Source of the DNA: Patescibacteria group bacterium
GTDB lineage: Bacteria > Patescibacteriota > Patescibacteriia > Patescibacteriales > JBAZCA01
Assembly (NCBI GenBank): GCA_041661405.1
Contig: JBAZUL010000001.1
Coordinates: 28,403 to 92,402 of the forward strand
Direction: 5' to 3'
Length of the DNA stretch: 64,000 nucleotides
Both the position numbers and the translations under genes were made by a program. Below the pieces are notes generated by a model. The model saw only the letters and a list, made by a program, of their open reading frames with translations, was not told the origin of the DNA and did no database searches. This document shows, in pieces, positions 11,571-57,757 of this stretch (position 1 is the first letter of the stretch; each line of letters opens with the position of its first letter).

Positions 11571-11651
11571 ATGTATTATGTATACAGCATTATGTATATC
11601 TTCTATCGCAACGGCAAACACGCGTAATGCATAATACTTTATACAAAATAC
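11571..11651. repeat. Heptad-built hairpin in the leader of the 11679 gene
   Basis: atgtatt atgtata cagcatt atgtata ... acgcgta atgcata atacttt atacaaa atacaaa. The arms are imperfectly complementary. Confidence 0.65.
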
Positions 11652-11678
11652 AAAAAACCCAAATTCAAAAATACATCC

Positions 11679-13373
11679 ATGACTAGCTTTTCCAAACCGT
11701 TCAAAAAAATCTTTAGCGTCTTTTCCTTTAAACGCCTGTTCTGGGCGCTTTTTTACGTTTTTCTCTTTTGCCTCTTATTAAATAATTCTTTCAGCTATCT
11801 TGACCCTGATCTCGGCTGGCACTTAAAAGCCGGGGAAGACATTCTAAGGGAAAAATCCGTGCCTCATCTCAACTATTATAATTATACCCTAGAAGGCAAA
11901 ACTTGGGTAGACCATGAATGGCTCTTAAACCTGGTCGCATTTTTGATTTATTCACTATCCGGCAATATGGGCTTAAATATTCTTTTCGCCCTGCTGGCGC
12001 TCGCCGCGCTGGCCGCTTTGCATGTTTTCGCGAAAAAAAGCCTTATCGGCCCGGAGGACAGTCCGGGCAATGTTTTTTTAACGGTCTTTTTCCTGATCTT
12101 CGGGGTTATCGCCGCTTCGCCGCACCTCGGAGTCCGGATGCAGGAAATCGCCCTTTTATGTGTTTCTCTCTTATATGCCATTCTGTACCGGTACGATAAA
12201 AAAAGGGATTTAAAAATTTTATTCGCGCTTCCCCTGCTTTTTTATTTCTGGGCGTCGGCGCACGCGAGTTTCCTGATCGGGCTTTTTCTCCTTTTCTTCC
12301 GGATCGTTATCATGTTCCTGAAAAATATCCTGATAAAATACTTTCCCGGCTCAAGGGTGAGCGCTTTTTTCGGACTGGAAGCGTTATCGGACAAAAAGCG
12401 AATATCGCCCTTAATCGCCTTAAGTGGCTTAAGCGTCGGCGCCACGCTCCTAACGCCTTACGGCCTTGAACTTTACGGTTTTTTAAGCGATTATGGCAAT
12501 ACTTTTTACATGACCCATATAGCGGAGTGGCTGCCAGCCTGGTATCTGCCGATCGCTTACTGGCAGATGGCTTTTATGGCTTTTGCCTTGGCCGGCTTCT
12601 TGCTTTATTTCCTAAATAAAAATAAAAAGGAAAAACCGGGTTTGTGGGAGGTTTCTATCTTTTTCCTTTTCATGGCCTTGGCTTTTAAATCCAAAAGGCA
12701 TTTTCCACTGTTTTTTTTCAGTTCATTGCCTTTAATATTAAAAAGCTACGCCAGCGTACTTCGGCCGGATTTTGGCCAGGAAACGCGTTTCGGCGGCGAA
12801 TTCAGGGAAATTAAAACCAGCGCGCGTTCCAGTTTTTTTAGCAACGCGCCGAAATTCCCCCGGGCAATGCTTTTAATTACCATAGCTTTTGTTTCTTTGA
12901 GCCTGCTCTTAAAAACCAACTTTGCCGGCGATTCCTTTCAATATTTCTGCCGCGATTACCCTTGCGGGGCAACCGCCTTCCTGAAAGCCAATCCCCAATA
13001 CGAAAACCTAAACCTCTTTAACGAATACGCCTGGGGCGGCTACCTTATCTGGACTTATCCGGAAAAAAAGCTTTTTATTGACGGCCGCCTGCCGCAGTTG
13101 CCTTTTAAAAACCACACATTCTTAGAGGAGTATTTTGAACTGCTGGATAAAGATAAGCTCGCCGCGAAACTTAACGAATATGATATCCGGCTGGTTCTAA
13201 TCCGGGCTGAAGAAAGGAAGATAAAATTCAATTTTATTGAAAAGAAGTTTTTCGGGCTGGATGAAGAAAAGGAAAACAAGGACAAGAATGAACTGGCAGA
13301 ATTTTTAAAAAGTTCGGGAGACTGGGAAAATGTTTACCAAGACCAAACGGCGGCGGTTTACTTAAAAAAATAA
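11679..13373 (+). CDS. Polytopic membrane protein, putative GT-C-type glycosyltransferase
   Basis: 564 aa. Many predicted TM helices followed by a soluble C-terminal domain, with an acidic first-loop motif YLDPDLGWHLKAGED. The call rests on architecture and on the adjacent polyprenyl-phosphate sugar synthases. Confidence 0.5.
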   Translation: MTSFSKPFKKIFSVFSFKRLFWALFYVFLFCLLLNNSFSYLDPDLGWHLKAGEDILREKSVPHLNYYNYTLEGKTWVDHEWLLNLVAFLIYSLSGNMGLNILFALLALAALAALHVFAKKSLIGPEDSPGNVFLTVFFLIFGVIAASPHLGVRMQEIALLCVSLLYAILYRYDKKRDLKILFALPLLFYFWASAHASFLIGLFLLFFRIVIMFLKNILIKYFPGSRVSAFFGLEALSDKKRISPLIALSGLSVGATLLTPYGLELYGFLSDYGNTFYMTHIAEWLPAWYLPIAYWQMAFMAFALAGFLLYFLNKNKKEKPGLWEVSIFFLFMALAFKSKRHFPLFFFSSLPLILKSYASVLRPDFGQETRFGGEFREIKTSARSSFFSNAPKFPRAMLLITIAFVSLSLLLKTNFAGDSFQYFCRDYPCGATAFLKANPQYENLNLFNEYAWGGYLIWTYPEKKLFIDGRLPQLPFKNHTFLEEYFELLDKDKLAAKLNEYDIRLVLIRAEERKIKFNFIEKKFFGLDEEKENKDKNELAEFLKSSGDWENVYQDQTAAVYLKK

Positions 13374-13374
13374 A

Positions 13375-14097
13375 ATGAAAAACCTGTTTTTAATTCCCAC
13401 CTATAACGAGAAAAAAAATATCGGCCGATTGATTAAAGTAATCTTTTCCCTGCCCGGAGAAAACGAAATCCTTGTGATTGATGATAGCTCGCCGGATGGG
13501 ACCGGCGGGCTGGTTTCAGAGATGGCAAAATCCGATTGCCGGATTTCACTTCTTTCCCGGAGAAAAAAGGAAGGGCTTGGGAAAGCTTATCTTGACGGCT
13601 TCGGCAAAGCGCTCTGCCGGCCGGAAATCGGAAAAATTATCATGATGGACGCCGACTTTTCCCATGATCCGGCCTGCGTCCCGGCAATGATTGAGGATAG
13701 TCGCGGAGGCGGAGCGGTTATCGGCTCTCGCTATATTCCGGGCGGCGGAATATCGAACTGGAAAGGATGGCGAAAGCATTTAAGCCAATGGGCGAATATT
13801 TATTGCGGCCTTATCTGCCGCCTGCCGATCCGGGATTATACGGCCGGCTTTTATGTCATCAACACCGAAATTTTGAAAAAGCTGGATTTTTCCAAAATTT
13901 CCTCCTCTGGATACGCTTTTCAGATTGAACTGAAATACCGCCTCTGGCGCGCCGGAGCCGAACTGAAAGAATTTCCCATAATTTTCAAGGAGCGGGCAAA
14001 CGGCGAATCAAAAATGTCCGGCCATATAATTCGCGAAGGCTTGATGGCGCCATGGAAAATTTGGCTCGGGGAAAAAAATAGACGCGGAAAATTTTAA
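13375..14097 (+). CDS. Polyprenol/dolichol-phosphate mannosyltransferase-like GT2 enzyme
   Basis: 240 aa. LIPTYNEKKNIGRLI ... VIDDSSPDGT ... MDADFSHDP ... YAFQIE matches Dpm1/Ppm1-type GT2 motifs. Confidence 0.85.
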   Translation: MKNLFLIPTYNEKKNIGRLIKVIFSLPGENEILVIDDSSPDGTGGLVSEMAKSDCRISLLSRRKKEGLGKAYLDGFGKALCRPEIGKIIMMDADFSHDPACVPAMIEDSRGGGAVIGSRYIPGGGISNWKGWRKHLSQWANIYCGLICRLPIRDYTAGFYVINTEILKKLDFSKISSSGYAFQIELKYRLWRAGAELKEFPIIFKERANGESKMSGHIIREGLMAPWKIWLGEKNRRGKF

Positions 14098-14149
14098 ATT
14101 TTACCGGAAGCCGGTTATCACGCGTCAAAAAAAATTTAAAACTTAATCT

Positions 14150-14905
14150 ATGAAAAACCGGGAAGAAAACAAAAAAATTTCAGTTGAATTCTGCATTCCT
14201 GTTTTTAATGAAGAAAAAATATTGGAAAAGAATGTCAAAAGGCTTTTTGATTATTGCGTCCGAAAAAATTTTTCCTTTGACTGGAAAATCATAATCTTAA
14301 ACAACGGCTCTACCGACGGATCTTACGCGATAGGGGAAAAAATGAAGCGCGCCGAAATTAATATCTTAAACATCAGCGAAAAAGGCAGGGGGCGGGCAAT
14401 AAAAAACTATTGGGAAAAAAGCCGGGCCGACATTGTCGCTTACATGGACATTGATCTCGCGGTTTCCCTGGATAACATCACGGACCTGATTAAGCCTTTA
14501 ATCGTAGAGGGGTTTGATCTTACTATAGGCTCCCGCCTCCTTCCCGAATCAAAAATTGAACGGGCCTTTATTCGCGAGCTAAGCTCCCAAACCTACAACC
14601 TGCTTTCCCGCCTTATCTGCGGTCATAAATTCTCGGATCTGCAATGCGGATTTAAGGCAATGAAAACCGACGTTTTCCGGCGACTTTCACCCCTTATCCG
14701 CGATTCCAAATGGTTTTTTGACACCGAACTGGTTGTTTTTGCCAGCCATTACGGCTGTAAAATAAAAGAGGTTCCGGTTGAATGGTCGGAAAACCGTTAT
14801 GATAAGAGAAAAAGCAAAGTGAATCTTTTTAGGGACACGGCAGTATTCTTAATCAACCTCATAAAATTAAGAATAAAGCTAACCGGGCTGGATAAAAACA
14901 AATGA
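14150..14905 (+). CDS. GT2 family glycosyltransferase (polyprenyl-phosphate hexosyltransferase-like)
   Basis: 251 aa. IPVFNEEKIL, NNGSTDGS and MDIDLA (DxD) motifs, with a C-terminal amphipathic/TM tail. Confidence 0.8.
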   Translation: MKNREENKKISVEFCIPVFNEEKILEKNVKRLFDYCVRKNFSFDWKIIILNNGSTDGSYAIGEKMKRAEINILNISEKGRGRAIKNYWEKSRADIVAYMDIDLAVSLDNITDLIKPLIVEGFDLTIGSRLLPESKIERAFIRELSSQTYNLLSRLICGHKFSDLQCGFKAMKTDVFRRLSPLIRDSKWFFDTELVVFASHYGCKIKEVPVEWSENRYDKRKSKVNLFRDTAVFLINLIKLRIKLTGLDKNK

Positions 14906-16305
14906 AATTCTTAAAACCGTTTTCTTCATGCCGGATAAAAATTGAATCGCTGTGGTGGCTGGTTCTGTTCGCCATTCTTCTTTTATTCCACTTAAACCAT
15001 CCCATAGACAGCGATGAGGGCGTAATTCTGGAGGGAGCCTGGAAGCTCTGGAATAAAAAAAGGCTCTACACTGACTTTTTTGAATTCGTTCCTCCGGGCG
15101 GTTTTTACTTTGTCTATTGGATCTGGAAAATTTTCGGGGTCGGATATTTCGCCCCGAAAATAGCTTCCATAATAATAATCTTCTTAAGCGGCGCAGGAAT
15201 ATTTAAAATTTCCGGACTGCTGAAGAAAACCGCCTTTAATTATCTGCCTCCCCTGATTTTCGTTTTCCTCTCCATGTATTGGCCGCTTATAAACCATAAT
15301 ACCTACAATATCTTTTTTATAATCTGGTCGGTTTATTTTTTCATCCGAGCCTTAATTTCGGGGTCAAAAAACCATTACGCGCTGGCCGGACTGGCGGCCG
15401 GAATTTCCGTTTTATTTCTCCAGCAGAAAGGGGCGATTTTAATCATTTCTTCTTTCGCCCTGCTGGTTTTATTCTCCCTGCTTTACAGGAAGCTTGATTA
15501 TCTGAAAATGTCTTTATATTACGGCTTGTCGTTCTTGCCGCCCCTGCTTATTTTATTAAAATGGCCTTTGGATTTGATTTATAAAAATCTGGCGATTTTT
15601 CCTTTAGCAAACGGCGCGGAAATAAATAAACTGCCTTTGAACTTTTTTTTTCTGGCTTTATTCATGATTGCGGCAATCTTCACGGCCTATATATCGCTGG
15701 AAAAATTTTCCCTGCCGATAAAATACCTGGCCGGAATCCAGGCGGCTCTCTTCGCCACGACGCTGGTGCGTCCGGATCTAAACCATATAAACCTTGTAAT
15801 TTTTCCGGCTCTCTGTCTTATTCCATCGGTTTTTAGCAATCCGATTTTATTTAATAGTACTAAATCCATTATTGGAGCCGCATCCTTATCCGCGGCGAGC
15901 ATTCTTCTTTGTGTCTCCGTTTTTCCTTTGGCTAATTTTCTGATTTTTACGCCTTCTTTTTTATTTTCCAATGAATCGGCCGTGATTAATTATATTAGAA
16001 AAAATTGCCAGGATCCCGGCAATTATCTTTATGCCGGGCCATTCCTGCCCGGCTTATATTTTGAAACTGGAATGATGAATCCCACTCCTTATTCTTTTTT
16101 AATAACCAATCATCAGACCGAAAGCCAGTTTGCCGAAGCGAGAAATATATTGGCCAAAGTCCGGCCCCGATGCGCTATCCTTAATTATTCCATGGTAGAA
16201 GGATTCCGCTACAACCAAAATAATCCAGTGGATAGTTTTATCAGGAACAATTATCATCAAGTTTTCCGGGAACGCAATGCCTTGGTTTACAAAATTAATG
16301 AATAA
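14902..16305 (+). CDS. Polytopic membrane protein, putative GT-C-type (ArnT/PMT-like) glycosyltransferase
   Basis: 467 aa, roughly a dozen hydrophobic segments. First-loop acidic motif HPIDSDEGVILEGAWKL. Start overlaps the stop of the GT2 gene. Confidence 0.5.
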   Translation: MKFLKPFSSCRIKIESLWWLVLFAILLLFHLNHPIDSDEGVILEGAWKLWNKKRLYTDFFEFVPPGGFYFVYWIWKIFGVGYFAPKIASIIIIFLSGAGIFKISGLLKKTAFNYLPPLIFVFLSMYWPLINHNTYNIFFIIWSVYFFIRALISGSKNHYALAGLAAGISVLFLQQKGAILIISSFALLVLFSLLYRKLDYLKMSLYYGLSFLPPLLILLKWPLDLIYKNLAIFPLANGAEINKLPLNFFFLALFMIAAIFTAYISLEKFSLPIKYLAGIQAALFATTLVRPDLNHINLVIFPALCLIPSVFSNPILFNSTKSIIGAASLSAASILLCVSVFPLANFLIFTPSFLFSNESAVINYIRKNCQDPGNYLYAGPFLPGLYFETGMMNPTPYSFLITNHQTESQFAEARNILAKVRPRCAILNYSMVEGFRYNQNNPVDSFIRNNYHQVFRERNALVYKINE

Positions 16306-16330
16306 TCATGAAGAATTTTATCCGCTATTC

Positions 16331-16359
16331 TTGAAATTCGCCCTTACTAATGATATATT
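16331..16359 (+). promoter_or_regulatory. Predicted promoter of trpS
   Basis: TTGAAA - 17 nt - TATATT. Confidence 0.55.
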
Positions 16360-16423
16360 GCAATCAGCCCGGCAACGAATTCTAACTGATAATATTCTCC
16401 GGCTTATCTAAAACATCAATCTT

Positions 16424-17428
16424 ATGGCGCAAAAACCATTATCCAAGCCAATCATCTTTTCCGGCATCCAGCCTTCGGGCAATCTGCATCTCGGCAATTA
16501 TCTCGGGGCGATTGTCCAATGGGTGGAACTGCAGGATCAATACGACTGCATTTTCTGCGTCGTGGATTATCACGCCATAACCGTTAAGCAGGATCCGAAA
16601 ATCCTGAACGAAAAAATCGTTGAAATCGCGAAAATTTATTTAGCCTCTGGCATTGACCCGAAAAAATCCATTATTTTTCAGCAGTCGGCCCGGCCGGAGC
16701 ATACGGAATTGGCGTGGGTGTTGAATTGCGTGGCTCGTATCTCGGATCTGGATAAAATGACCCAGTTTAAAGATAAGGCCGGAAAAAATCAGGAATCCGT
16801 AAGCGTGGGATTATACGACTATCCGGTTCTAATGGCCGCTGATATTTTACTTTATGACACAGACTTAGTGCCGGTCGGCGAAGACCAGTCCCAGCACGTT
16901 GAACTGGCGCGGACTCTTGGGCGGCGGTTTAATAAGCAATTCGGCGAAACATTCAAAATCCCGGAAGTAAAAATTAAGGAAGAATCGGCCAGGATTATGG
17001 GCTTGGACGACCCGCTGAAAAAGATGAGTAAAAGCGCGGCCAGTGAAATGAATTATATCGCCCTGACTGACGCGCCGGAAAAAGCCGCGAAAAAAATCAT
17101 GCGAGCCGTAACCGATTCAGGTTCGGAAATAAAATACGATAAAGAGAATAAGCCGGCTATCGCCAACTTAATGACCATTTATTCACTTCTCTCAAACACA
17201 TCTTTTAAAGACATTGAAAAAAAATACTCAGGCAAAGGCTATGGGGACTTTAAAAAAGACCTGGCGGAAATCGTAAAAAAATTCCTCGCCGGATTTCAGG
17301 AAAAATACAATTCCATTTCGGATGAGGAAGTAAAAAATATTCTCAGGGCGGGCGCGGAAAAACTGGCGCCGATCGCGGCAAGGAACATGGAAAAAGTGAA
17401 AAAAAATATCGGCGTGCTGTTAAAATAA
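16424..17428 (+). CDS. trpS: Tryptophan--tRNA ligase
   Basis: 334 aa with HIGH-type GNLHLGNYLG and KMSKS. Confidence 0.95.
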   Translation: MAQKPLSKPIIFSGIQPSGNLHLGNYLGAIVQWVELQDQYDCIFCVVDYHAITVKQDPKILNEKIVEIAKIYLASGIDPKKSIIFQQSARPEHTELAWVLNCVARISDLDKMTQFKDKAGKNQESVSVGLYDYPVLMAADILLYDTDLVPVGEDQSQHVELARTLGRRFNKQFGETFKIPEVKIKEESARIMGLDDPLKKMSKSAASEMNYIALTDAPEKAAKKIMRAVTDSGSEIKYDKENKPAIANLMTIYSLLSNTSFKDIEKKYSGKGYGDFKKDLAEIVKKFLAGFQEKYNSISDEEVKNILRAGAEKLAPIAARNMEKVKKNIGVLLK

Positions 17429-17451
17429 TCTTCAAAAATAACCGCTTAAAA

Positions 17452-17490
17452 AATCACCCCGCGCTTATCAGGATGCGGGGTGATTTTTTT
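17452..17490. terminator. Bidirectional rho-independent terminator between trpS and valS
   Basis: ATCACCCCGC-gcttatcaggat-GCGGGGTGAT, flanked by an A run and a T run. Confidence 0.8.
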
Positions 17491-17517
17491 ATCTCATTTT
17501 TCTTAATACCAGGTAAT

Positions 17518-20178
17518 TTATCTTTTATTTTTCAGCTTTTCCAGTTCAGCCTGCCAGCCTGCCAGCTTTTCTTTTTCCTTTTTAACAATTTCCTCCGGCG
17601 CTTTTTCCGTAAATTCCTTATTCCGCAGCCGCGCGCTTAAACCGCTTATCAGTTTTTCCAACTTTTCCACTTCTTTTTTTATCCGCTCTTTTTCCTTTTC
17701 TTCGTCAATCGCGCCGACTAAATAAATTTCAATACTGCCGACCGCGGCATGGATCGCTTTTTCAATTTTTTCTCCGCCCGCTTTTACTTCCAGCTCGCTG
17801 ATTCCGGTCCGAAGCCCTTTTATCAGCGCTTCCTGGGATTTAATCAATTCCAGCATATCCCCTGCGTAAATGATTGCTTTAACTTTTTTTGCCGGTTCTA
17901 CTTTATTTTCCGCCCGCGCGTTTCTTATGGACTTAATAATTTCAATTACCGCGTCAAACCCGTCCGCTTCATATTCTGCCGCGTCTTCCTCCGGCCAAGC
18001 GGTTATCATGAGCGGCTTTTCGGCGCCTGAATTTTTCCAGGCCGCCTCGGTAACGAACGGAATAAACGGATGCCAGAGTTTTAAGAGACCCTTAAGAACA
18101 TAGCTGAGCACATTATTTTTTTCGGAAGTTTTTTCAAACTTGCTTATTTCAAGATACCAGTCGGCGAACTCGCTCCGGGTAAAATCCCTTAACTTTTCGC
18201 CGGCTTGGGAAAACCGGAAATTATCAAGATCCTCGTTAATCTCTTTTACCAAAGCCTGAAATTCTGACAAGATCCATTTGTCAGCCAGAGTAAGATCCGC
18301 GGCCTTAAATTCCGAATCCGCAGCGCCGTCTTTCCGGCTGGCAAATACGAATAATGAAATGTTCCAAAGTTTGGTGATAAAATTCCTCGCGCCGATTATT
18401 TTCTCCTCATAAAATTTTGAATCATTCCCCGGGGAAACGCCTAAAAGCAGGCTTAACCGGAGGGAGTCGGTGCCAAAATCCCTTATAACATCCAAAGGAT
18501 CAATATTATTGCCGGATGATTTTGAAAACTTCCGGCCCTTTTCGTCGCGCAACATGCCATGAATATAAACGTCGCGGAAAGGAATTTCGTCCAGGGCATA
18601 AGTCGTCATTAAAATCATCCGCGCCATCCAGAAAAATAAAATCTCATAGCCCATCTGCATCCAGGCGGTCGGATGGAAGGTCTTCAGGTCATCTTTCATC
18701 TGCGTAGCGCCAGCATTGTCAACGTCGCGAGGCTTGCCCCGCGAAGCTTCAGCGGAGTGGGGCCAGCCGAGAGTGGAAAATGTCCAGAGCGCCGAAGAAT
18801 ACCAGGTATCCAGCGTGTCTTCATCCTGCGTCCAATCTCCGCCTTTTGGCGCTTCAACTCCGCAATAAACTTCGTCGCCTTTGTACCACACGGGTATGCG
18901 ATGCCCCCACCAAATCTGTCTTGAAATACACCAGTCGCGCAAGTTATCAATCCAGTTAAAGTAAATTTTCTCAAAACGCTCAGGCGTGATTGTGATTTTT
19001 TGATTTGGATCGCCCTTATGGCCGATCTTAACCGCTTCCTTCATCAAATCTTTCAGGCTCTTTCCCTTGTCCGGTATTTCTTTATTGACATTAACAAACC
19101 ACTGTTCTTTAATCTGCGGCTCAATCAGTCCGTTACTTCTATCTCCTTTGGCCACCCGATGGATATAATTTTCTTCCGCTTTAACCAGCAGGCTTTTTTC
19201 TTTTAATTTTTCTATTATCTTCGGCCTGGCCTCAAAAATATTCATTCCGGCGAATTCGCCCGCGACCGGCATTAATTTGCCATCGTAATCAATAATTTGC
19301 TCTCCCTTCAAATTGTGCCTTTCCGCGATTTCAAAATCAACCATGTCGTGCCATGGCGTTATTGTCATGACTCCGGTTCCGAACTCCGGATCAATAACGC
19401 TATCCTTAATTATTGTTGCTTTTACCTTTCCATTAATCCATTCGCATTCAAATTTATCGCCATGCTTATATTGCGCGTACCGCTTATCATCCGGATGCAT
19501 GACAACATATTTATCGCCGAATTTAGTTTCCGGGCGGGCTGTAGCAATAATAAACGGCCCGTATTTAAGATAATAAAATGAAGCTTTTTCTTCTTGCCAG
19601 ACTATCTCGTCATCCGAGATCGTAGTTTGCAGGGTTGCGTCCCAATTGACAATCCTTTTCCCCCGGTAAATCAAACCGTCGTCGTGCATTTTTTTAAAAA
19701 CCGTATTAACGGCCAGGTTGCGTTTGTCGTCAAAAGTGTAAGTAAGCCGCGACCAGTCGCAGGAGGTTCCCATTTTTCGGATCTGGGAAAGGATGGTGGC
19801 TTTAGATTCTTCGGCGTATTTTTTTACTTCCTTTAACAGCCCCTCGCGCCCGAGCTCTTTTCTCGGATTTTTCACTCCCTTTTCCATTAACAGTTTTTCC
19901 ACCTTGGCCTGCGTGGCTACGGCCGCGTGATCGGTTCCGGGCAAAAGCAAAACTTTTTTCCCGCGCATCCGCTGATAGCGGGCCATGACATCCATTAATG
20001 AATTTTCCAGGGCATGGCCTAAATGCAAAACTCCGGTAACATTCGGCGGCGGCATCATTATAGAGTAAGGCTCACCTTCAATATTATCCGGATTAAAAAA
20101 ACCCGACTGTTCCCATTTTTCGTAAATTTTATCTTCATGCTCGGCCGGGTTGTAATTTTTCGGCGATTCTTTTTTCAT
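17518..20178 (-). CDS. valS: Valine--tRNA ligase
   Basis: 886 aa. PPPNVTGVLHLGHAL, KFSKSSGN and a C-terminal coiled coil. Confidence 0.97.
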   Translation of the reverse strand: MKKESPKNYNPAEHEDKIYEKWEQSGFFNPDNIEGEPYSIMMPPPNVTGVLHLGHALENSLMDVMARYQRMRGKKVLLLPGTDHAAVATQAKVEKLLMEKGVKNPRKELGREGLLKEVKKYAEESKATILSQIRKMGTSCDWSRLTYTFDDKRNLAVNTVFKKMHDDGLIYRGKRIVNWDATLQTTISDDEIVWQEEKASFYYLKYGPFIIATARPETKFGDKYVVMHPDDKRYAQYKHGDKFECEWINGKVKATIIKDSVIDPEFGTGVMTITPWHDMVDFEIAERHNLKGEQIIDYDGKLMPVAGEFAGMNIFEARPKIIEKLKEKSLLVKAEENYIHRVAKGDRSNGLIEPQIKEQWFVNVNKEIPDKGKSLKDLMKEAVKIGHKGDPNQKITITPERFEKIYFNWIDNLRDWCISRQIWWGHRIPVWYKGDEVYCGVEAPKGGDWTQDEDTLDTWYSSALWTFSTLGWPHSAEASRGKPRDVDNAGATQMKDDLKTFHPTAWMQMGYEILFFWMARMILMTTYALDEIPFRDVYIHGMLRDEKGRKFSKSSGNNIDPLDVIRDFGTDSLRLSLLLGVSPGNDSKFYEEKIIGARNFITKLWNISLFVFASRKDGAADSEFKAADLTLADKWILSEFQALVKEINEDLDNFRFSQAGEKLRDFTRSEFADWYLEISKFEKTSEKNNVLSYVLKGLLKLWHPFIPFVTEAAWKNSGAEKPLMITAWPEEDAAEYEADGFDAVIEIIKSIRNARAENKVEPAKKVKAIIYAGDMLELIKSQEALIKGLRTGISELEVKAGGEKIEKAIHAAVGSIEIYLVGAIDEEKEKERIKKEVEKLEKLISGLSARLRNKEFTEKAPEEIVKKEKEKLAGWQAELEKLKNKR

Positions 20179-20339
20179 ATTAGGGATCTAATGCTAACTA
20201 ATTATTTCGCTTAGATTTGCAAGGTTAGTCCGTTTGATTATATAATAGAGTTAAACGGACTAGTATTCCCATTCTATTTAATTCTAGCCAAATAGTCAAT
20301 TTATTTCCTAAATTCTAACTTAAAATAAAGCCAATAATT

Positions 20340-27718: not shown

Positions 27719-27747
27719 ATCCTAAGCCAATCACGGCCATTTGTCAA
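27719..27747 (-). promoter_or_regulatory. Predicted promoter of glyA
   Basis: The minus strand reads TTGACA - 17 nt - TAGGAT. Confidence 0.55.
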
Positions 27748-27806
27748 AATGATTTGCGTGCGAGCAAATCATCCCGTAGCCGAAGGCGTGCGGGAACTCT
27801 CGCACA
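27742..27806 (+). repeat. Promoter-associated structured repeat, type 1, copy R2
   Basis: TGTCAAAATGATTTGCGTGCGAGCAAATCATCCCGTAGCCgaaGGCGTGCGGGAACTCTCGCACA. The left terminus is the -35 of the glyA promoter. Confidence 0.7.
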
Positions 27807-31603: not shown

Positions 31604-32394
31604 ACATAACCAAAAGACTATCCATCGGCATCTTCGGCTTTGGCCACATGGGTCAGGCTATTTTTAAATTGCTAAAAGCCGATGAAAAATTCGGCAGTTG
31701 CCGGTTTTTTATCTGTTCTCTTGGCGTAAACAAAGTCAAAGGCGCGGAATGCGTTCTTAGCCTAAAAACTCTCGGCGAAAAATCCGATATAATCTTTTTC
31801 TGCGTTAAGCCGCAGGAATTTAAAAACTTGGCCGTAGAAAAAATCGGCTCGCCAAAAACCATTATCATTTCCATCATGGCTGGCGTTAAATTAAGCGCTG
31901 TTCGCCGGATGTCCAATACGAAAAAAATCATCCGCGCCATGCCCAACCTTGCCCTGGCGATCGGAGAAAGCATGACCGGCTGGCACGCTGACAAAAAACA
32001 ATTTTCCCGGACAGAACTGCTGACGATAAAAAATATTTTTAAAACTTTCGGCCAGGACATTTTCTTAAAAGACGAAAAACAGATTAACGCCGTTACCGCC
32101 GTTTCCGGTTCGGGTCCGGCTTATGTTTTTCTTTTCATAAACGCCCTGGCAAGCGCGGCCATAAAGCTCGGTTTTAGCCGAAGCGAGGCTCTCTTACTCG
32201 TCAGGCAAACTTTCGCCGGGTCGCTCAAATATTCAGAAGGCGAAAATGATTTAGCCGGACTGATAAAAAAAGTAACCTCAAAAAAAGGCACGACCGAAGC
32301 GGCCTTAAAAAGTTTAAACTCCGGCCGATTTTACAAACAATGGGAACAAGCCGTAAAAAAAGCTTATGAAAGAGCTGAGGAATTATCAAAATAG
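31600..32394 (+). CDS. proC: Pyrroline-5-carboxylate reductase
   Basis: 264 aa. N-terminal GFGHMG Rossmann motif, RAMPN and GSGPAYVF motifs. Start overlaps the proS stop. Confidence 0.85.
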   Translation: MNITKRLSIGIFGFGHMGQAIFKLLKADEKFGSCRFFICSLGVNKVKGAECVLSLKTLGEKSDIIFFCVKPQEFKNLAVEKIGSPKTIIISIMAGVKLSAVRRMSNTKKIIRAMPNLALAIGESMTGWHADKKQFSRTELLTIKNIFKTFGQDIFLKDEKQINAVTAVSGSGPAYVFLFINALASAAIKLGFSRSEALLLVRQTFAGSLKYSEGENDLAGLIKKVTSKKGTTEAALKSLNSGRFYKQWEQAVKKAYERAEELSK

Positions 32395-33718
32395 ACAACA
32401 AACGACCCGCTTCGCCGGAGCGAGAGCGAGGCGAGCAGAAAACCTGCCTCGTCGGCAGGCAGGCAGACAACAGAAAAAAATCTTATCGGTTAAACATGCT
32501 TCAGCCGGACTTATTCATCTTTCTTTAAAACAAAAAAGTGAAGCGCTCAGCTCTTTGGCAATCGCTTTAGTAAAAAATTCCGCTCAAATTCTTAAAGCCA
32601 ATAAAGCCGATATCAAGGCCGCGAAAAAATACGGTAAAAGCGATAGTTTTATTGAACGCCTGGCTTTAGACAAAGAAAAAATAAAAAACATGGCTGATTC
32701 GCTCAGAGCAATGGCAAAACTTCCCGATTATATCGGCGAGGTCATGGAAGAAAAAAGCCGGCCGTCAGGAATCAGGATTAAAAAAGTCCGGGCGCCCCTG
32801 GGGCTCGTCGCCATAATTTACGAATCCCGACCGAACGTTACGGTTGACGCTTTTTCTTTGGCTTTTAAAAGCGGAAATGGAATAATCCTAAAAGGCGGCA
32901 AAGAAATAAAAAATACTAACTTAGAGCTCGTAAAAATCATCAAAGCCGCGCTTAAAAAACACGGTGTCAATCCCGAAATAATCCTTGATTTGACCGGCCT
33001 CGGAAACCCGGAAACCCTAGAACTGATGGCTGACAAAAATATTGACTGCTTAATTCCCCGCGGCGGCAAAGGCCTTATAGAGTTCGTCCGCGAGAACGCC
33101 AAAATTCCGGTTATCATTACCGGCGCTTCGGTCGTCCATGCTTATGTTGACGAAGACGCGGATTTAGAACTCGCCCGGCGGGTAATTATTAACGCTAAGA
33201 CCCGGAGAGTTTCAATCTGCAACGCTTTGGATGTTTTACTTTTACACAAAAAAATCAGCCAGCCCGTACTGGGATTACTGGCCAAAGATTTATCGGCCAA
33301 AGGCGTAGAAATTAGAGCGAACCAGACTGCTTACCGAATTTTAAAAAAACTTAACTACCCAAAATTAAAACCAGCCGGAACGGCTGATTTTGATACGGAA
33401 TTTTTGGATTACATTCTGGCGGTAAAAATCGTGAATGATTTGGATAAAGCGATAAAGCACATTCAAACGCATACTTTAGGCCACAGCGAGGCCATAATCA
33501 CCAGGTCAAAATCCAAAGCCGAAAAATTTTTTAAAGCCATAGACGCGGCCTGCCTTTACCATAACACTTCAACCCAATTTTCCGACGGCGGCGAATTTGG
33601 ATTAGGCTCGGAAATCGGCATCTCCACCCAAAAACTCCATGCCCGCGGCCCCTTTGCCCATGAAGCGCTCACGACCTACAAATACATTATTGAGAGTAAG
33701 GGAATAACCAGAAGGTAA
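32366..33718 (+). CDS. proA: Gamma-glutamyl phosphate reductase
   Basis: 450 aa as listed in the track. YESRPNVT, CNALDVLL and HSEAIIT motifs. The first ~35 aa are Arg-rich, encoded by palindromic repeat sequence, and have no in-frame ATG after them, so the start is uncertain. Confidence 0.88.
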   Translation: MKELRNYQNRQQTTRFAGARARRAENLPRRQAGRQQKKILSVKHASAGLIHLSLKQKSEALSSLAIALVKNSAQILKANKADIKAAKKYGKSDSFIERLALDKEKIKNMADSLRAMAKLPDYIGEVMEEKSRPSGIRIKKVRAPLGLVAIIYESRPNVTVDAFSLAFKSGNGIILKGGKEIKNTNLELVKIIKAALKKHGVNPEIILDLTGLGNPETLELMADKNIDCLIPRGGKGLIEFVRENAKIPVIITGASVVHAYVDEDADLELARRVIINAKTRRVSICNALDVLLLHKKISQPVLGLLAKDLSAKGVEIRANQTAYRILKKLNYPKLKPAGTADFDTEFLDYILAVKIVNDLDKAIKHIQTHTLGHSEAIITRSKSKAEKFFKAIDAACLYHNTSTQFSDGGEFGLGSEIGISTQKLHARGPFAHEALTTYKYIIESKGITRR

Positions 33719-34857: not shown

Positions 34858-34917
34858 ACATTTAAGGCGCCCGTTTTAAGACGCCAGAAGCTATTTTTGT
34901 GGGTTTAAGAGGGCTCG

Positions 34918-34976
34918 CCCCGCACGCCTATCCCGCCCCGGCGGGACGGGATGCCTCGCTCACACGCTCGGTAAAC
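34918..34976 (-). repeat. Promoter-associated structured repeat, type 1, copy in reverse orientation (no promoter seen)
   Basis: The minus strand reads TTTACCGAGCGTGTGAGCGAGGCATCCCG-hairpin-..GCGTGCGGGG, matching the left arm of copies at 7892, 37838 and 40132. Confidence 0.6.
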
Positions 34977-34990
34977 CATGCGGACAATTG

Positions 34991-35059
34991 TGGGCGGCAT
35001 AGGATTCGAACCTATTACCTCGTCGATGTCAATCCCGAGGACTCGGGACTCTAACCAAC
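34991..35059 (-). pseudogene. tRNA-Val-like fragment X, 3' portion (T arm and acceptor 3' strand)
   Basis: The minus strand reads GTTGGTTAGAGTCCCGAGTCCTCGGGATTGACATCGACGAGGTAATAGGTTCGAATCCTATGCCGCCCA. The acceptor 3' strand is complementary to GGGCGGC at 36405-36411. No canonical anticodon stem can be drawn. Confidence 0.55.
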
Positions 35060-35129: not shown

Positions 35130-35978
35130 TTAATCGTATTTAATATATAGTCCAACGCCAACTTCTTTTAAATTTGTTACTTTTGATAAAGCGATTTTTG
35201 AATCTAAATCAACGCAATGACAAGCATGTAATTTAGACGTTTTCAGTTCTTGGAAATAATTGAGAGTGCCTGAGAGTTGTTTTTCTGAGGGTTGCATTAA
35301 ATGAAAACCACCAATAACGTCTAAAACTTTTTCTTCACCACAAACCTTTTTGGCGTATTCAACAATATTACAGATACCTGAATGAGAGCAACCAGTTATG
35401 ATAATAAGACCCTCTTTACCTTTGTAAGCTAGTGCAGTGTCATCAAGCAAATAGTCAGGTTCCATCTTCCCATCAATATGAATTTCTCCAACAGGTGATT
35501 TGTTTTCAAAGTCATTGCTTCTTTCTATTTCACCAAGAAAAACAAGTTTATCTGTAAGCCAAAAAGGTTCTTTGTGTGATTCAATTTGAAAATGCTTATC
35601 TAATTTTGATTGCGGAATAGTACAACCTATCTCTTTTAGACCATCAGCTGACCTTGTTTCAAAAATCGCTGGGTGAGCAATTAGTTTAGGATCTTTGTGG
35701 GGGATAGACTCAATCTTTGCCTCAGTATATAGCTTTAAAAGCGGATCAAGCCCCCAAGTGTGATCCATATGTGCATGGGAGAGAACGATAAAATCGCTTT
35801 GTAGCAAATTTAAATTAAGTTTTTGCGCATTAATAATAAAGGCGTTGGAATAACCAACATCGAATAATATTTGCCTAGATTCATCTTCTATTAAATAAGA
35901 TACTCCCGGTTCACCAAGAAAGTATCTATCTATTAAAGTATTGTTGTCGATTAATACTGTTAGCTTCATAAATTTCAC
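35130..35978 (-). CDS. MBL-fold metallo-hydrolase (COG1237-like)
   Basis: 282 aa with HAHMDHTWG (HxHxDH) and later His/Asp/Cys ligand positions. AT-rich. Confidence 0.8.
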   Translation of the reverse strand: MKFMKLTVLIDNNTLIDRYFLGEPGVSYLIEDESRQILFDVGYSNAFIINAQKLNLNLLQSDFIVLSHAHMDHTWGLDPLLKLYTEAKIESIPHKDPKLIAHPAIFETRSADGLKEIGCTIPQSKLDKHFQIESHKEPFWLTDKLVFLGEIERSNDFENKSPVGEIHIDGKMEPDYLLDDTALAYKGKEGLIIITGCSHSGICNIVEYAKKVCGEEKVLDVIGGFHLMQPSEKQLSGTLNYFQELKTSKLHACHCVDLDSKIALSKVTNLKEVGVGLYIKYD

Positions 35979-36011
35979 TTAGAAAAATGGATATAATTTC
36001 GTATAACTGAA

Positions 36012-36260
36012 CTATATTCTGCAAAGATTTTTATAAAATAGTTTGCTTTTTTGCGCTTTCAAAAATTTTTCTCTTCTCATAGCATTTCCTCTATCTTTAA
36101 ATTTTTCTTCATAAACCTTAATCCATTCGCCATCATATTTTGCCGTATATGTTGATAAACCCGAATTGTGCTCAATCAGCCTCTTTTTAACATCATATGT
36201 TTGACCAATATAAAATTTGTCATGCTTTTTATTATGTATTAAATAGACATAATAATTCAT
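36012..36260 (-). CDS. Small GIY-YIG nuclease family protein
   Basis: 82 aa. YYVYLI...KFYIGQT...RLIEHN...GEW...R(E)KFLK matches the GIY-YIG core. The ATG (36260-36258) lies one nucleotide after the tRNA-Val discriminator base. Confidence 0.85.
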   Translation of the reverse strand: MNYYVYLIHNKKHDKFYIGQTYDVKKRLIEHNSGLSTYTAKYDGEWIKVYEEKFKDRGNAMRREKFLKAQKSKLFYKNLCRI

Positions 36261-36261
36261 G

Positions 36262-36335
36262 TGGGTTTAAGAGGGCTCGAACCTCTGACCTCCACGATGT
36301 CAACGTGGCGCTCTAACCAACTGAGCTATAAACCC
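36262..36335 (-). tRNA. tRNA-Val (anticodon GAC)
   Basis: Manual cloverleaf: GGGTTTA TA GCTC AGTTGGTTA GAGC G CCACG TTGACAT CGTGG AGGTC AGAGG TTCGAGC CCTCT TAAACCC A. 74 nt, no encoded CCA. Confidence 0.9.
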
Positions 36336-36355: not shown

Positions 36356-36411
36356 CCTCCACGATGTCAATCCCGAGGACTCGGGACTCTAACCAACTGA
36401 GCTAGCCGCCC
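36356..36411 (-). pseudogene. tRNA-Val-like fragment X, 5' portion with a palindrome in place of the anticodon-stem 5' strand
   Basis: GGGCGGC TA GCTC AGTTGGTTA GAG then the palindrome TCCCGAGTCCTCGGGA, then TTGACATCGTGGAGG. It shares a 36-nt repeat (36362-36397) with 35024-35059. Confidence 0.55.
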
Positions 36412-36432
36412 AATACGATTATAAACTCAATG

Positions 36433-36506
36433 TGCGCCCAGATGGACTTGAACCATCGACCCCGGCTTTATAAGAGCCGTGCTCTAACCAGCTGAGCTAT
36501 GGGCGC
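36433..36506 (-). tRNA. tRNA-Ile (anticodon UAU)
   Basis: Manual cloverleaf: GCGCCCA TA GCTC AGCTGGTTA GAGC A CGGCT CTTATAA AGCCG GGGTC GATGG TTCAAGT CCATC TGGGCGC A. 74 nt. Confidence 0.85.
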
Positions 36507-36520
36507 AATGTTTTATCTTT

Positions 36521-36583
36521 CTTTTTTCAGAGGCGTGCTCCCTGCCTGCCGGCAGGCAGGTAACCAGCTGAGCTATGGGCGCC
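36521..36583 (-). pseudogene. Partial duplicate of the tRNA-Ile 5' half interrupted by a 20-nt perfect palindrome
   Basis: GCGCCCATAGCTCAGCTGGTTA + CCTGCCTGCCGGCAGGCAGG + GAGCACGCCTCTGAAAAAAG. It has no T arm and no acceptor 3' strand. Confidence 0.6.
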
Positions 36584-37814: not shown

Positions 37815-37843
37815 AATATATACAAAAACCGACTGACTGTCAA
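37815..37843 (-). promoter_or_regulatory. Predicted promoter of the DHH-like gene
   Basis: The minus strand reads TTGACA - 17 nt - TATATT. Confidence 0.6.
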
Positions 37844-37900
37844 ACGCCGAGCGTGTGAGCAAGGCGTCCCGCAGCCAAAGGCATGCGGGATCTCTGCGCA
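37838..37900 (+). repeat. Promoter-associated structured repeat, type 1, copy R4
   Basis: TGTCAAACGCCGAGCGTGTGAGCAAGGCGTCCCGCAGCCaaaGGCATGCGGGATCTCTGCGCA. The left terminus is the -35 of the promoter for the 36636..37781 gene. Confidence 0.7.
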
Positions 37901-40108: not shown

Positions 40109-40137
40109 ATTATATCATGCTAATCTAAGCATGTAAA
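40109..40137 (-). promoter_or_regulatory. Predicted promoter of the RNHCP-uvrB unit
   Basis: The minus strand reads TTTACA - 17 nt - TATAAT. Confidence 0.6.
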
Positions 40138-40185
40138 TGCCGAGCGTGCGAGCGAGGCATCCCGCCGGCGAAGCTGGCGGGATCT
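40132..40185 (+). repeat. Promoter-associated structured repeat, type 1, copy R5
   Basis: TGTAAATGCCGAGCGTGCGAGCGAGGCATCCCGCCggcgaagctGGCGGGATCT. The left terminus is the -35 (TTTACA) of the RNHCP gene promoter. The right end lies 6 nt before tRNA-Val(CAC). Confidence 0.7.
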
Positions 40186-50639: not shown

Positions 50640-50665
50640 AATAGTCCCGAGTGCTCGGGACTATT
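50640..50665. repeat. GC palindrome AATAGTCCCGAG..CTCGGGACTATT
   Basis: 12-bp perfect arms just upstream of the tRNA-Arg/CAU pair. Same core (GTCCCGAG..CTCGGGAC) as the palindrome inside tRNA-like fragment X. Confidence 0.7.
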
Positions 50666-54061: not shown

Positions 54062-54117
54062 TTGACAAGTAATTTGCATGTGAGCAAATTATCCCGCAGC
54101 CGCAGGCGTGCGGGATC
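54062..54117 (+). repeat. Promoter-associated structured repeat, type 1, copy R6
   Basis: TTGACAAGTAATTTGCATGTGAGCAAATTATCCCGCAGCCgcaGGCGTGCGGGATCC. Confidence 0.6.
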
Positions 54118-54123
54118 CATTCT

Positions 54124-54194
54124 GGTGAGCAAATTATCCCGAATCCCGCATTTGCGGGGGAAAAATCTCTCGCTCGCGCGCTCGGCGTTTGACT
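54124..54194 (+). repeat. Type 1 repeat copy R7 carrying the opposite terminus
   Basis: GGTGAGCAAATTATCCCGAATCCCGCAtttGCGGGGGAAAAATCTCTCGCTCGCGCGCTCGGCGTTTGACT. The right terminus is the -35 of the infB promoter. Confidence 0.65.
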
Positions 54195-57709: not shown

Positions 57710-57757
57710 CTTCCTGTGGGCTAGACCCTGCAAATGCGGGGAACCTCCACCTTCCTG
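57710..57757 (-). pseudogene. Partial duplicate of the tRNA-Leu 3' end with a GC hairpin replacing T loop/stem sequence
   Basis: The minus strand reads GTGGAGGTTC-CCCGCATTTGCAGGG-TCTAGCCCACAGGAAGG. The real tRNA-Leu end reads GTGGAGGTTCGAGTCCTCTCTCGCCCACAGGAAGG. Confidence 0.55.

Follow-up and report, generated by a model that had tools for sequence, protein, structure and literature searches.

The window analysed here, a 64,000-nucleotide stretch of contig JBAZUL010000001.1 (positions 28,403 to 92,402) from a Patescibacteria group bacterium, contains broken copies of transfer RNA (tRNA) genes that are associated with GC-rich palindromes and lie beside intact tRNA genes. These fragments are probably the arms and scars of a selfish cassette that is anchored in tRNA genes and built around a GIY-YIG nuclease of ~82 amino acids (aa) of the Slx1/UPF0213 type. 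How such a cassette would work is something that we infer below from features observed in the loci, namely the coupling to tRNA genes, the arms carrying a shared palindrome (hereafter PAL), the gain and loss of the cassette, its foreign composition, the replacement of a tRNA-Val gene and the centring of junctions on tRNA loops.

tRNA fragments and palindromes in the window

The window is bacterial DNA of ~45% GC from the Patescibacteria (candidate phyla radiation, CPR), in which ARAGORN and Rfam recognise seven intact tRNA genes and nothing beyond them; the fragments give no tRNA match even at E<=10. All coordinates refer to the minus strand, i.e., the tRNA sense, unless a plus sign is given, and the features are collected in Table 1. 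On this strand, the locus runs from a DHH-like gene through a tRNA-Ile 5′ fragment, tRNA-Ile(TAT), the 5′ half of a pseudo-tRNA called fragment X, tRNA-Val(GAC), a GIY-YIG open reading frame (ORF), an MBL-fold ORF and the 3′ half of X to a two-hairpin repeat with a copy of the tRNA-Val 3′ end, followed by proB.

A preliminary description of this DNA had listed three tRNA remnants carrying palindromes, and all three are indeed present, far above chance. In the Ile fragment, nucleotides 36582-36561 repeat positions 1-22 of the adjacent tRNA-Ile(TAT) (36506-36432) and lead into the perfect 20-nucleotide (nt) palindrome CCTGCCTGCCGGCAGGCAGG (36560-36541), which is a clean insertion between A21 and G22 and is followed by GAGCACGcCTCTgAaAAAaG, a degenerate copy of positions 22 to ~40. 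Fragment X is one Val-GAC-like tRNA gene present as overlapping halves, 36411-36356 (positions 1-46) and 35059-34991 (positions 15-76), which have 42 nt in common with 2 mismatches and whose acceptor strands are complementary (GGGCGGC in the 5′ half, GCCGCCC in the 3′ half); both contain TCCCGAGTCCTCGGGA in the place of G26 and the 5′ strand of the anticodon stem. The third remnant (57750-57710) is a 34-nt tandem duplicate made of the terminal 27 nt of tRNA-Leu(GAG) and the 7-nt spacer of this gene, in which GAGTCCTC has become CCCGCATTTGCAGGG. A fourth fragment had been overlooked: nucleotides 34917-34899 repeat the last 19 nt of tRNA-Val(GAC) and abut GC hairpins, forming with the intact gene (36279-36261) a 19-nt direct repeat of the tRNA-Val 3′ part, CGAGCCCTCTTAAACCCAC, that encloses DNA of 32% GC.

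The palindrome of fragment X was also said to recur near tRNA-Arg, and TCCCGAG-NN-CTCGGGA is found at 35033, 36371 and 50645, i.e., three matches in the window against 0.00 expected from 100 shuffles; the 20-mer CCTGCCTGCCGGCAGGCAGG occurs once, again against 0.00 expected in shuffles. The CCTGCC..GGCAGG copy announced near 32445-32468 exists at 32443-32463 as a relative of the 20-mer, yet an imperfect one (CCTGCCTcgtcGGCAGGCAGG), and the hairpin of the so-called type 1 repeat, CCCGCATTT(T)GCGGGG, lies at 7930 and 54145. The possibility raised earlier that X might be a functional non-canonical tRNA does not fit a sequence that is split by 1.3 kb, lacks the 5′ strand of its anticodon stem and gets no score from the tRNA model. 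A split or intron-containing tRNA was likewise rejected, as the halves overlap by 42 nt and enclose an intact tRNA-Val(GAC), and neither has a 5′ anticodon-stem strand matching CGACG or CGTGG. Rfam detects no group I intron or other family between them.

The cassette between the halves of fragment X

The DNA between the halves is a 1.3-kb cassette composed of the intact tRNA-Val(GAC), the GIY-YIG gene and the MBL hydrolase gene. Its GC content is 32%, against 47-49% in the flanking genes, and that of the GIY-YIG gene is 27%. The cassette tRNA-Val(GAC) matches the copy of a close relative (L004; comparison contigs carry handles of this form) at 58 of 75 positions, but that of the far more distant L005 at 69 of 75, and was apparently acquired horizontally, as judged from these comparisons.

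The GIY-YIG protein matches the Pfam catalytic domain PF01541 over residues 2-73 (E=9e-13) and gives weak PHROG matches to homing-endonuclease profiles. Its closest solved chains are 1ywl_A (E=7e-5) and 1zg2_A (E=7e-4), UPF0213 proteins of 96-107 aa, with SLX1 chains next, and its 82 aa fall within the ~80-110 aa of stand-alone, minimal GIY-YIG proteins of the UPF0213/Slx1-like kind. No separate DNA-binding domain (NUMOD, zinc finger or HTH) was found in the 82 aa, which are limited to the catalytic core; the TIGR01453 score of 21 bits stays below the cut-off of 56. By sequence, the protein belongs to the Slx1/UPF0213 group.

The GIY-YIG start codon (ATG) follows the 3′ end of tRNA-Val at a distance of 0 nt, with no visible ribosome-binding site. 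There is no terminator-like site between tRNA-Val and the ORFs, and the best promoter-like site lies upstream of the tRNA cluster. The ORF lacks its own promoter, terminator and clear ribosome-binding site. It is probably expressed as part of the tRNA transcript. The left arm (the 5′ half of X) was considered as a promoter, given that its anticodon loop TTGACA and an AT-rich -10 make one good match in the window, and was rejected since the spacing is unconserved in other loci.

The MBL gene accompanies the GIY-YIG gene in the window genome only and is absent from the other GIY-YIG loci. Over the GIY-YIG stop codon lies the sequence ATAGtTCAGTT, a tentative relic which would suggest that the MBL gene was inserted later, into the D loop of the right arm (the 3′ half of X). 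In L023, L027 and L033, the D arm of the right arm contains the GIY-YIG stop, and by this analogy the relic (36005-36015) would be the start of the right arm, cut off by the MBL insertion. The MBL protein gives weak matches to the N-terminal metal motif of RNase Z, well under cut-offs, and was rejected as an RNase Z; a weak precomputed match to the anti-Pycsar Apyc1 family was also noted.

Gain, loss and replacement in related genomes

Independent contigs reproduce the window path over both junctions. L001 (contig k141_644275, ERZ27249449) is 100% identical to the window over 11.2 kb, from 46260 down to 35057, and covers the stretch from X 5′ to MBL, while L003, from the same sample, starts 140 nt upstream of the junction and follows the window from the MBL end through X 3′ to proB with 99.97% identity. 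The split-tRNA arrangement is no assembly artefact. L001 leaves the window path at the inner edge of X 3′ (35057/35056), where ..cgtaaacGTT|GGTTAGAG in the window corresponds to ..cgtaaacGTT|atatgaaat in L001, and this inner edge is a real junction. Beyond it, L001 extends (11205-20249) for 9 kb or more into different DNA, mostly of low GC content, which represents either an insertion nested in the D loop of the arm or a rearrangement at the strain level; the branch itself is either a population polymorphism or an assembly-graph branch for which a 42-nt repeat cannot account at k=141. The additional DNA encodes an HD_4 domain protein, a tRNA_edit domain protein, an SSF transporter, an Imm5-like protein and an S11 peptidase.

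In the relatives L004/L009, whose neighbour protein is 85% identical, the same locus contains DHH, tRNA-Ile, 16 nt, tRNA-Val(GAC), 17 nt, GGTTC, 55 nt of GC hairpins, the last 24 nt of their own tRNA-Val, and proB; the Ile fragment, X and the cassette are all absent, and the intact tRNA-Ile stands at the same distance from the TATAAT box as in the window. Between the window and L004/L009, there is a presence/absence polymorphism with co-converted flanks, as is expected of homing endonucleases. The tRNA-Ile and tRNA-Val(CAC) of L004 are identical to those of the window at 75 of 75 positions but the tRNA-Val(GAC) at only 58 of 75, which implies that the tRNA-Val(GAC) region was replaced in one of the lineages.

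At greater distances (neighbour-protein identity in brackets), a window-like architecture is built from different sequence in L016 (39%), where a pseudo-tRNA of positions 1-60 ending in the T loop is followed at once by the GIY-YIG ORF, by tRNA-Val(GAC) 4 nt past its stop and by a pseudo-tRNA of positions 8-76. The 3′ pseudo part has a GC hairpin in its D loop after GGTTAG, and the anticodon arm is replaced by GTCCGATGGACGTCGGAC in both parts. L005 and L006/L011 (51-52%) contain pseudo-tRNAs with large D-loop and T-arm hairpins adjoining intact genes, and the L012 group (46%) is clean, without such fragments. In L005, a run of ~100 N (11432-11530) has the same tRNA-Ile 3′ half on either side; it looks like an unmerged scaffold gap at a tRNA repeat and no real duplication.

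Recurrence with GIY-YIG homologues

Altogether, 460 GIY-YIG homologues of 75-133 aa were found, and 12 genomic contexts were examined, 11 from Patescibacteria and one from Maribellus luteus (Bacteroidota). All 11 Patescibacteria contexts (window, L016, L021, L023, L024, L027, L029, L030, L031, L033 and L034) have the gene against a tRNA-Val, of the TAC, GAC or CAC isoacceptor and in five chromosomal neighbourhoods, and in every examined context the nuclease ORF and the tRNA gene are separated by 0-40 nt or overlap. The ORF starts 0-13 nt past the tRNA in the window, L023, L027, L029, L031 and L033 and ends inside or just before it in L021, L024, L030, L016 and L034; both the arm-nuclease-tRNA and the tRNA-nuclease-arm order are seen. 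Pseudo-tRNA copies are found in every context, as a single copy, as a tandem pair of identical units or as overlapping halves on both sides. They share 30-60 nt with the adjacent tRNA and have a palindrome in place of the T loop or of the anticodon-stem 5′ strand. ARAGORN lists two full-length PAL pseudo-tRNAs of L033 (1700-1785 and 1807-1891) as 'tRNA-???' with a 2-nt anticodon. The locus made of L19, tRNA-Leu and tRNA-Val(TAC), where the Leu fragment of the window lies, is cassette-free in the window and occupied in L021, L023, L024, L027 and L030.

In Maribellus luteus, two tandem GIY-YIG genes, 41% identical to the window protein, come after a tRNA-Asp pair, and each is then followed by a tRNA-Asp 3′ fragment that reads GGTCGCGGGTT|TCCCGAGTGCTCGGGA|TTCGCACCGCA. 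No integrase or recombinase gene was found between the repeats of the window, which enclose the GIY-YIG and MBL ORFs only, in the 9 kb of L001 or among the called genes at the 12 nuclease loci, and no candidate for a Y1/HUH transposase or other mobilising enzyme was seen at any locus. A phage origin was rejected: the PAL-plus-D-arm pattern has 0 matches in viral contigs, and tblastn with the protein found nothing in 50,697 phage records.

PAL as a putative cognate site of the nuclease

PAL has the consensus TCCCGA-N4-TCGGGA and, in the pseudo-tRNA copies, follows GGTTAGAG and precedes the anticodon loop TTNACA. Throughout the ~322 kb of loci, all strict matches lie after GGTTAGAG or GGTTC of tRNA-like sequence, save one upstream of tRNA-Arg, and in 12 of 12 contexts PAL is no more than ~110 nt away from the nuclease ORF. 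Its six inner pairs are the same in all copies while the loop varies, and L033 shows a compensatory change of a seventh pair (TCCCGAT..ATCGGGA). An origin of PAL from the local anticodon stem would fit the Val(TAC) loci, in which CTCG/CTTCG track the stem, and fails in the GAC and CAC contexts; because CTCG mismatches the local stem there, PAL is taken to be a fixed, transferred module.

In a divergent protein clade formed by L016 and L034, whose proteins are 62% identical to each other and 26-36% to that of the window, a different palindrome, GTCCGATGGCCATCGGAC, i.e., GTCCGATGG(C/A)C(A/G)TCGGAC, occupies the same tRNA position. The 16-mer TCCCGAGTGCTCGGGA of Maribellus luteus is identical to the copies of L021, L029 and window position 50645, but is found in the T loop of tRNA-Asp 3′ fragments. 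Since PAL is better conserved than the adjacent protein and changes with the protein clade, it is most simply seen as a site for that protein, and these sequence comparisons lead us to infer that PAL is the cognate site of the nuclease.

Junctions and other loop palindromes

Junctions between tRNA-like and other DNA recur at loop motifs, with eight independent ones in the T loop and several in the D loop. T-loop junctions (GGTTC|GA) are found in the Leu and Val 3′ fragments of the window, in L004, in the left part of L016, in the downstream fragments of L021 and L023, in the right arm of L027 and in L030 and L036. D-loop or D-stem junctions (GGTTA|GAG, GTT|GGTTA) are found in the Ile fragment of the window, in L016, L024 and L006 and at the MBL and L001 insertions. 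Often, the GIY-YIG ORF runs into the next tRNA-like sequence, where the TAG of GGTTAG or of A-TAG-CTC supplies its stop codon.

The 20-mer CCTGCCTGCCGGCAGGCAGG recurs identically in L021 and in L024/L025, there at pseudo-tRNA-Val positions 9/10, as against 21/22 in the window, with neither duplication nor loss of the target (GGTTA|..|GAGC; GCATA|..|GCTC). Near-identical copies are present in plain intergenic DNA, one of them nested in another hairpin, and by its sequence distribution the 20-mer is a separate dispersed element. The earlier suggestion that palindromes insert into tRNA duplicates holds for this 20-mer, given its clean insertion at differing tRNA positions, with the correction that it also enters DNA that is not tRNA-like.

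An insertion of tRNA into tRNA is preserved in L025 (2250-2362), which is otherwise identical to L024 (1849-1850) and L026 and whose resident tRNA-Val(TAC) is interrupted in the anticodon loop by 112 additional nt. This insertion holds another tRNA-Val(TAC), different from the resident one and intact, flanked by the 11-bp inverted repeats CCCCGTTAAAT and ATTTAACGGGG, and its left end TTCACCCCGTTAGAT also stands against the anticodon loop in L034 (Sungbacteria), where an intact tRNA-Val(GAC) lies between 20-bp inverted repeats within the D loop of a pseudo-tRNA. Loss of the cargo from such inverted-repeat insertions would leave the abutted repeats as a perfect palindrome at a loop position. Some arms are mosaics: positions 32-46 of the left arm in the window, and 32-48 of the right arm in L029, are identical to the intact tRNA, adjacent to the arm in the window, while the T arm and acceptor of the L029 arm are foreign. 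These sequence mosaics point to repeated short conversion tracts beside the palindrome.

Proposed mechanism

In the mechanism that we propose for the nuclease cassette, the nuclease would be transcribed from the tRNA promoter, and tRNA processing would free a nearly leaderless messenger RNA. The nuclease would break tRNA genes at loop motifs (GGTT(A/C)GAG), and the breaks would be repaired by recombination for which the tRNA-like arms of the cassette serve as homology. The resident tRNA gene would end as truncated or overlapping halves, while the cassette would keep or bring a working tRNA, so that the host survives and becomes dependent on it. PAL might be the DNA site of a nuclease dimer, acting as a cleavage site, an uncleavable operator or a recombination site, and would also inactivate the pseudo-tRNA arm. 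The other loop palindromes, i.e., the 20-mer and the T-loop hairpins, could be the inverted-repeat arms or empty remnants of similar small insertion cassettes, and would survive in dead tRNA copies only, insertion into a working copy being lethal. Three variants can be considered, namely homing with pre-formed arms, ends-in (Campbell-type) recombination, which would account for the overlap of the arms, and cutting at the palindromes themselves. A more specific form of this proposal, which we put forward tentatively, is a 'bring-your-own-tRNA' element, whose nuclease would recognise a 16-18-bp palindrome together with tRNA loop motifs, replace tRNA genes with the cassette copy and leave palindrome-tagged arms behind. 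The preliminary description had also considered that fragments and hairpins are joined by a common recombination process; this stands for fragment X, as the same architecture and PAL position are seen in all homologous contexts, although it had overlooked the nuclease cassette.

Several points weigh against the nuclease cassette. The activity and specificity of the nuclease are presumed, and the 82-aa protein has no DNA-binding domain, unlike characterised homing endonucleases. Simple homing does not account for the survival of the intact tRNA beside the nuclease, which should be a target itself, and does not predict an arm overlap of 30-50 nt; Campbell-type recombination should yield PAL in both copies only if both partners carried it. 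The 12 contexts were picked for long contigs, and five of the 11 from Patescibacteria share the L19-Leu-Val(TAC) locus, which could in part reflect vertical inheritance. Homologues on rhizobial plasmids (35-42% identical) have neither a tRNA nor PAL adjacent to them, and the link to tRNA is consequently not family-wide. Finally, there are fragments with no detectable GIY-YIG gene or pseudogene, namely the Ile and Leu fragments of the window and those of L004, L005 and L006. No GIY-YIG pseudogene remnant was returned by tblastn (E<=5) for L004-L006, for the surroundings of the Ile and Leu fragments or for the DNA upstream of tRNA-Arg. It is a guess that the short spacers in L023 and at 50.6 kb of the window are internally deleted nuclease genes.

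Alternative explanations

Two alternatives would dissociate the palindromes from the nuclease. In one, which we consider unlikely, the fragments are the att remnants of tyrosine-integrase elements, and the GC palindromes are unrelated hairpins such as terminators or REP-like sequences. Integrating elements are known to leave fragments of tRNA genes behind (PMC9897764), a low-GC segment is bordered in the classical geometry by the 19-nt copy of the tRNA-Val 3′ end (34917-34899), and at least 9 kb of further low-GC DNA follows the same junction in L001; yet no recombinase is encoded in the repeat-bounded segment, in these 9 kb or at the 12 nuclease loci. Moreover, many fragments are 5′ parts upstream of an intact gene or internal, overlapping pieces and not displaced 3′ ends, and chance neighbours would not be expected to place PAL at one fixed tRNA position in all loci, identical across phyla. 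In the other, autonomous palindromic elements of the REP or MITE kind, with their enzyme encoded elsewhere, enter tRNA-like loops and persist in dead copies, and the GIY-YIG gene is an unrelated user of the tRNA promoter. The 20-mer behaves in this way, being cleanly inserted and identical in the window, L021 and L024 at different tRNA positions, as well as intergenic and nested in another hairpin, and PAL-like hairpins also occur off pseudo-tRNAs (window 50645; L021 3759). As a general account it is nonetheless improbable, since PAL lies near a nuclease ORF in 12 of 12 contexts and the type of palindrome changes with the protein clade; no Y1/HUH transposase or other mobilising candidate is present at any locus, and the overlapping halves around the cassette are left unexplained.

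It could also be that the PAL pseudo-tRNAs are functional RNAs, i.e., anticodon-less tRNA mimics, an RNA antitoxin or decoy in a type-III-like pair, or processing signals for the release of the messenger. In a type III toxin-antitoxin pair, tandem RNA repeats lie directly upstream of the toxin gene, with a terminator in between. In L023, L027 and L033, tandem pairs of identical units stand upstream of tRNA and nuclease, with the intact tRNA between the arms and the ORF; at other loci, the arm is downstream only. The L033 units are full length, with ARAGORN tRNA calls, the fold is stable (z = -4.2), the stem is preserved by one compensatory change (L033), tRNA-like sequence is found at both ends of the nuclease ORF, and a prokaryotic Slx1-like domain fused to a tRNA methylase is on record (PMC1564403). 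We doubt this explanation, however, as most copies are too truncated (1-46 or 15-76) for an acceptor or T arm to form, PAL of Maribellus is contained in a 3′ fragment of just ~38 nt, and PAL lies upstream of the ORF at some loci and downstream at others, which better suits an orientation-free DNA site than the layout of an RNA operon. The invariant stem sequence favours base-specific recognition over structure alone, and the GIY-YIG enzymes characterised to date are DNases (PMC1564403). Mis-joins at tRNA repeats in a metagenome-assembled genome are hardly credible as the source of the arrangement: contigs do break or branch at the repeats (L002 terminates at each of them, L008 stops close to the locus, and L001 and L003 diverge at 35057), but both window junctions are reproduced by independent contigs with 99.97-100% identity, the branch is at k=141, well above a 42-nt repeat, and the same architecture is found in more than 10 unrelated assemblies.

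Comparison with known systems

The preliminary description held that no described mechanism could be assigned, which is too strong, because a phage GIY-YIG homing endonuclease that cuts tRNA genes, SegB, is known (PMC2330249; PMC13096335). The motif at which SegB cleaves within tRNA genes, RAWTSGAAC, is the T-loop consensus in reverse complement. With homologous recombination, SegB gives rise to local segmental duplications containing a full tRNA gene, and it is statistically linked to tRNA genes (PMC13096335; PMC2330249). Like the cassette, SegB and the GIY-YIG genes of T-even phages lie among tRNA genes with a patchy, mobile distribution, and the SegB cut motif is the consensus in which most junctions of the present loci fall. 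In contrast, SegB is phage-borne, exceeds 200 aa and has a C-terminal DNA-binding part, whereas the cassette protein is a bare 82-aa core and is chromosomal in Patescibacteria and Bacteroidota; no conserved palindrome or palindrome-disrupted pseudo-tRNA arms have been described for SegB, while the cassette has both. By analogy, the cassette would act like a free-standing homing endonuclease of the SegB kind, minus the separate DNA-binding domain that is one of the defining features of that family. The function of the stand-alone Slx1-like/UPF0213 group (the E. coli YhbQ type) is unknown (PMC1564403). Its members (YhbQ type; 1ywl, 1zg2) have the same size and minimal domain and are the best sequence matches of the cassette protein, and the literature searched contains no link of the family to tRNA genes or to a cognate palindrome. 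Full-text literature searches found no description of a bacterial nuclease-tRNA module, nor does such a module appear in a recent survey of Patescibacteria tRNA introns (PMC13011429).

GC-rich palindromes at tRNA genes have an organellar parallel: in Neurospora mitochondrial DNA, GC-rich PstI palindromes flank tRNA genes, yeast mitochondrial DNA contains mobile GC clusters, and Allomyces mitochondria combine double-hairpin elements with a GIY-YIG ORF that duplicated the end of atp6. What these AT-rich genomes have in common with the present locus are dispersed GC palindromes concentrated around tRNA genes, together with a mobile GIY-YIG ORF supplying a new copy of the gene part that it displaces and leaving the old part as a pseudogene. 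To our knowledge, the mitochondrial palindromes are tied neither to one nuclease family nor to a fixed tRNA position, and they belong to organelles, unlike the cassette of free-living or episymbiotic bacteria. REP/RAYT systems (REPtrons) and IS200/IS605 elements resemble the cassette in having dispersed extragenic GC palindromes, an enzyme gene flanked by its own palindrome, and clean insertion without target-site duplication; the cassette differs from them by the absence of a Y1/HUH transposase and of a GTAG-type guide tetranucleotide, by its GIY-YIG neighbour and by its tRNA-loop targets. Integrative elements and genomic islands at tRNA genes were reportedly treated by Williams in 2002. As in tRNA-gene integrative islands (PMC9897764), direct repeats of a tRNA part bound compositionally deviant DNA in the cassette, and T-loop or anticodon-loop junctions and arrays of successive 3′-end remnants are common to both; the cassette differs by having no integrase, by its 5′ and internal fragments, by its complete replacement tRNA and by the palindrome inside the repeats.

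Stand-alone GIY-YIG proteins of the UPF0213/Slx1-like type are annotated in thousands of bacterial genomes, and the cross-phylum link to tRNA genes and a palindrome provides testable substrates. If the 'bring-your-own-tRNA' reading is true, it would give the large UPF0213 family its first biological role. A cassette that displaces resident tRNA genes and makes the host depend on the element's own tRNA would possibly be a new selfish strategy, and would explain the fast turnover of tRNA-Val in Patescibacteria beside unchanging neighbour tRNAs. It would also be a driver of tRNA turnover and local rearrangement in their very small genomes, and the loop palindromes would be the footprints of nested tRNA-in-tRNA insertions. 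In practice, palindrome-tagged pseudo-tRNAs contaminate automated tRNA sets and break metagenome assemblies, and their recognition improves annotation and binning.

Other features of the window

Table 1. Features of the tRNA-Ile/tRNA-Val locus and related sequences in the 64,000-nucleotide window.
Feature	Coordinates	Strand	Remark
DHH-like gene	37781-36636	-	First gene of the locus
Promoter-like site TTGAAA-16-TATAAT	36662-36635	-	Strong; upstream of the tRNA cluster
Ile 5′ fragment, tRNA-Ile(TAT) positions 1 to ~40, with palindrome CCTGCCTGCCGGCAGGCAGG at 36541-36560	36521-36582	-	Palindrome between A21 and G22
tRNA-Ile(TAT), intact	36432-36506	-	ARAGORN/Rfam; 75/75 identical to L004
X 5′ half (left arm), pseudo-tRNA-Val positions 1-46, with PAL TCCCGAGTCCTCGGGA at 36371-36386	36356-36411	-	PAL in place of G26 and anticodon-stem 5′ strand
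tRNA-Val(GAC), intact	36261-36335	-	ARAGORN/Rfam
GIY-YIG gene, 82 aa, UPF0213/Slx1-like minimal type	36012-36260	-	Pfam GIY-YIG
Tentative D-arm relic ATAGtTCAGTT, over the GIY-YIG stop codon	36005-36015	-	10/11 match to tRNA positions 7-17
MBL-fold hydrolase, 279 aa, cassette cargo	35130-35969	-	GC 34%
X 3′ half (right arm), pseudo-tRNA-Val positions 15-76, with the same PAL at 35033-35048	34991-35059	-	Acceptor GCCGCCC
Two-hairpin GC-rich repeat ('type 1 repeat')	34918-34975	-	Joined directly to the tRNA-Val 3′-end fragment
Copy of last 19 nt (T loop to 3′ end) of tRNA-Val(GAC)	34899-34917	-	Repeat CGAGCCCTCTTAAACCCAC
tRNA-Leu(GAG) 3′ end plus spacer, tandem duplicate, with hairpin CCCGCATTTGCAGGG at 57726-57740	57710-57750	-	CCCGCATTTGCAGGG in place of GAGTCCTC
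Extended PAL copy AATAGTCCCGAG-CA-CTCGGGACTATT	50640-50665	.	In the tRNA-Arg/tRNA-Met leader; surroundings without recognisable tRNA fragment
Imperfect relative CCTGCCTcgtcGGCAGGCAGG of the 20-nt palindrome	32443-32463	.	proC-proA junction, beside a type-1-like hairpin

The position of tRNA-Ile(TAT) beside tRNA-Val(GAC), downstream of the DHH-like gene, is kept in relatives down to 39% neighbour-protein identity, and the conservation of a tRNA-Ile with anticodon UAU suggests that these lineages read AUA codons with a UAU tRNA.

Copies of the two-hairpin GC repeat are found at 7897-7945, 27747-27795, 37842-37890, 40135-40183 and 54067-54160 (all +) and at 34918-34975 (-), with compensating changes between copies in the first stem (GCC..GGC vs ATTT..AAAT). 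On the opposite strand, they mostly read hairpin-hairpin-TTTT, which leads directly into a -35 box (TTGACA) and, after another 17 nt, a -10 box, and one copy lies 9 nt upstream of tRNA-Val(CAC). From their sequence, these repeats look like intergenic terminator-plus-promoter modules. At the proC-proA junction, the proA ORF as called has, at window 32366-32480 (+), a low-complexity N-terminal extension (..RFAGARARRAENLPRRQAGRQQ..) that derives from the GC hairpin repeats located there, and the real start of proA is probably further downstream than called.

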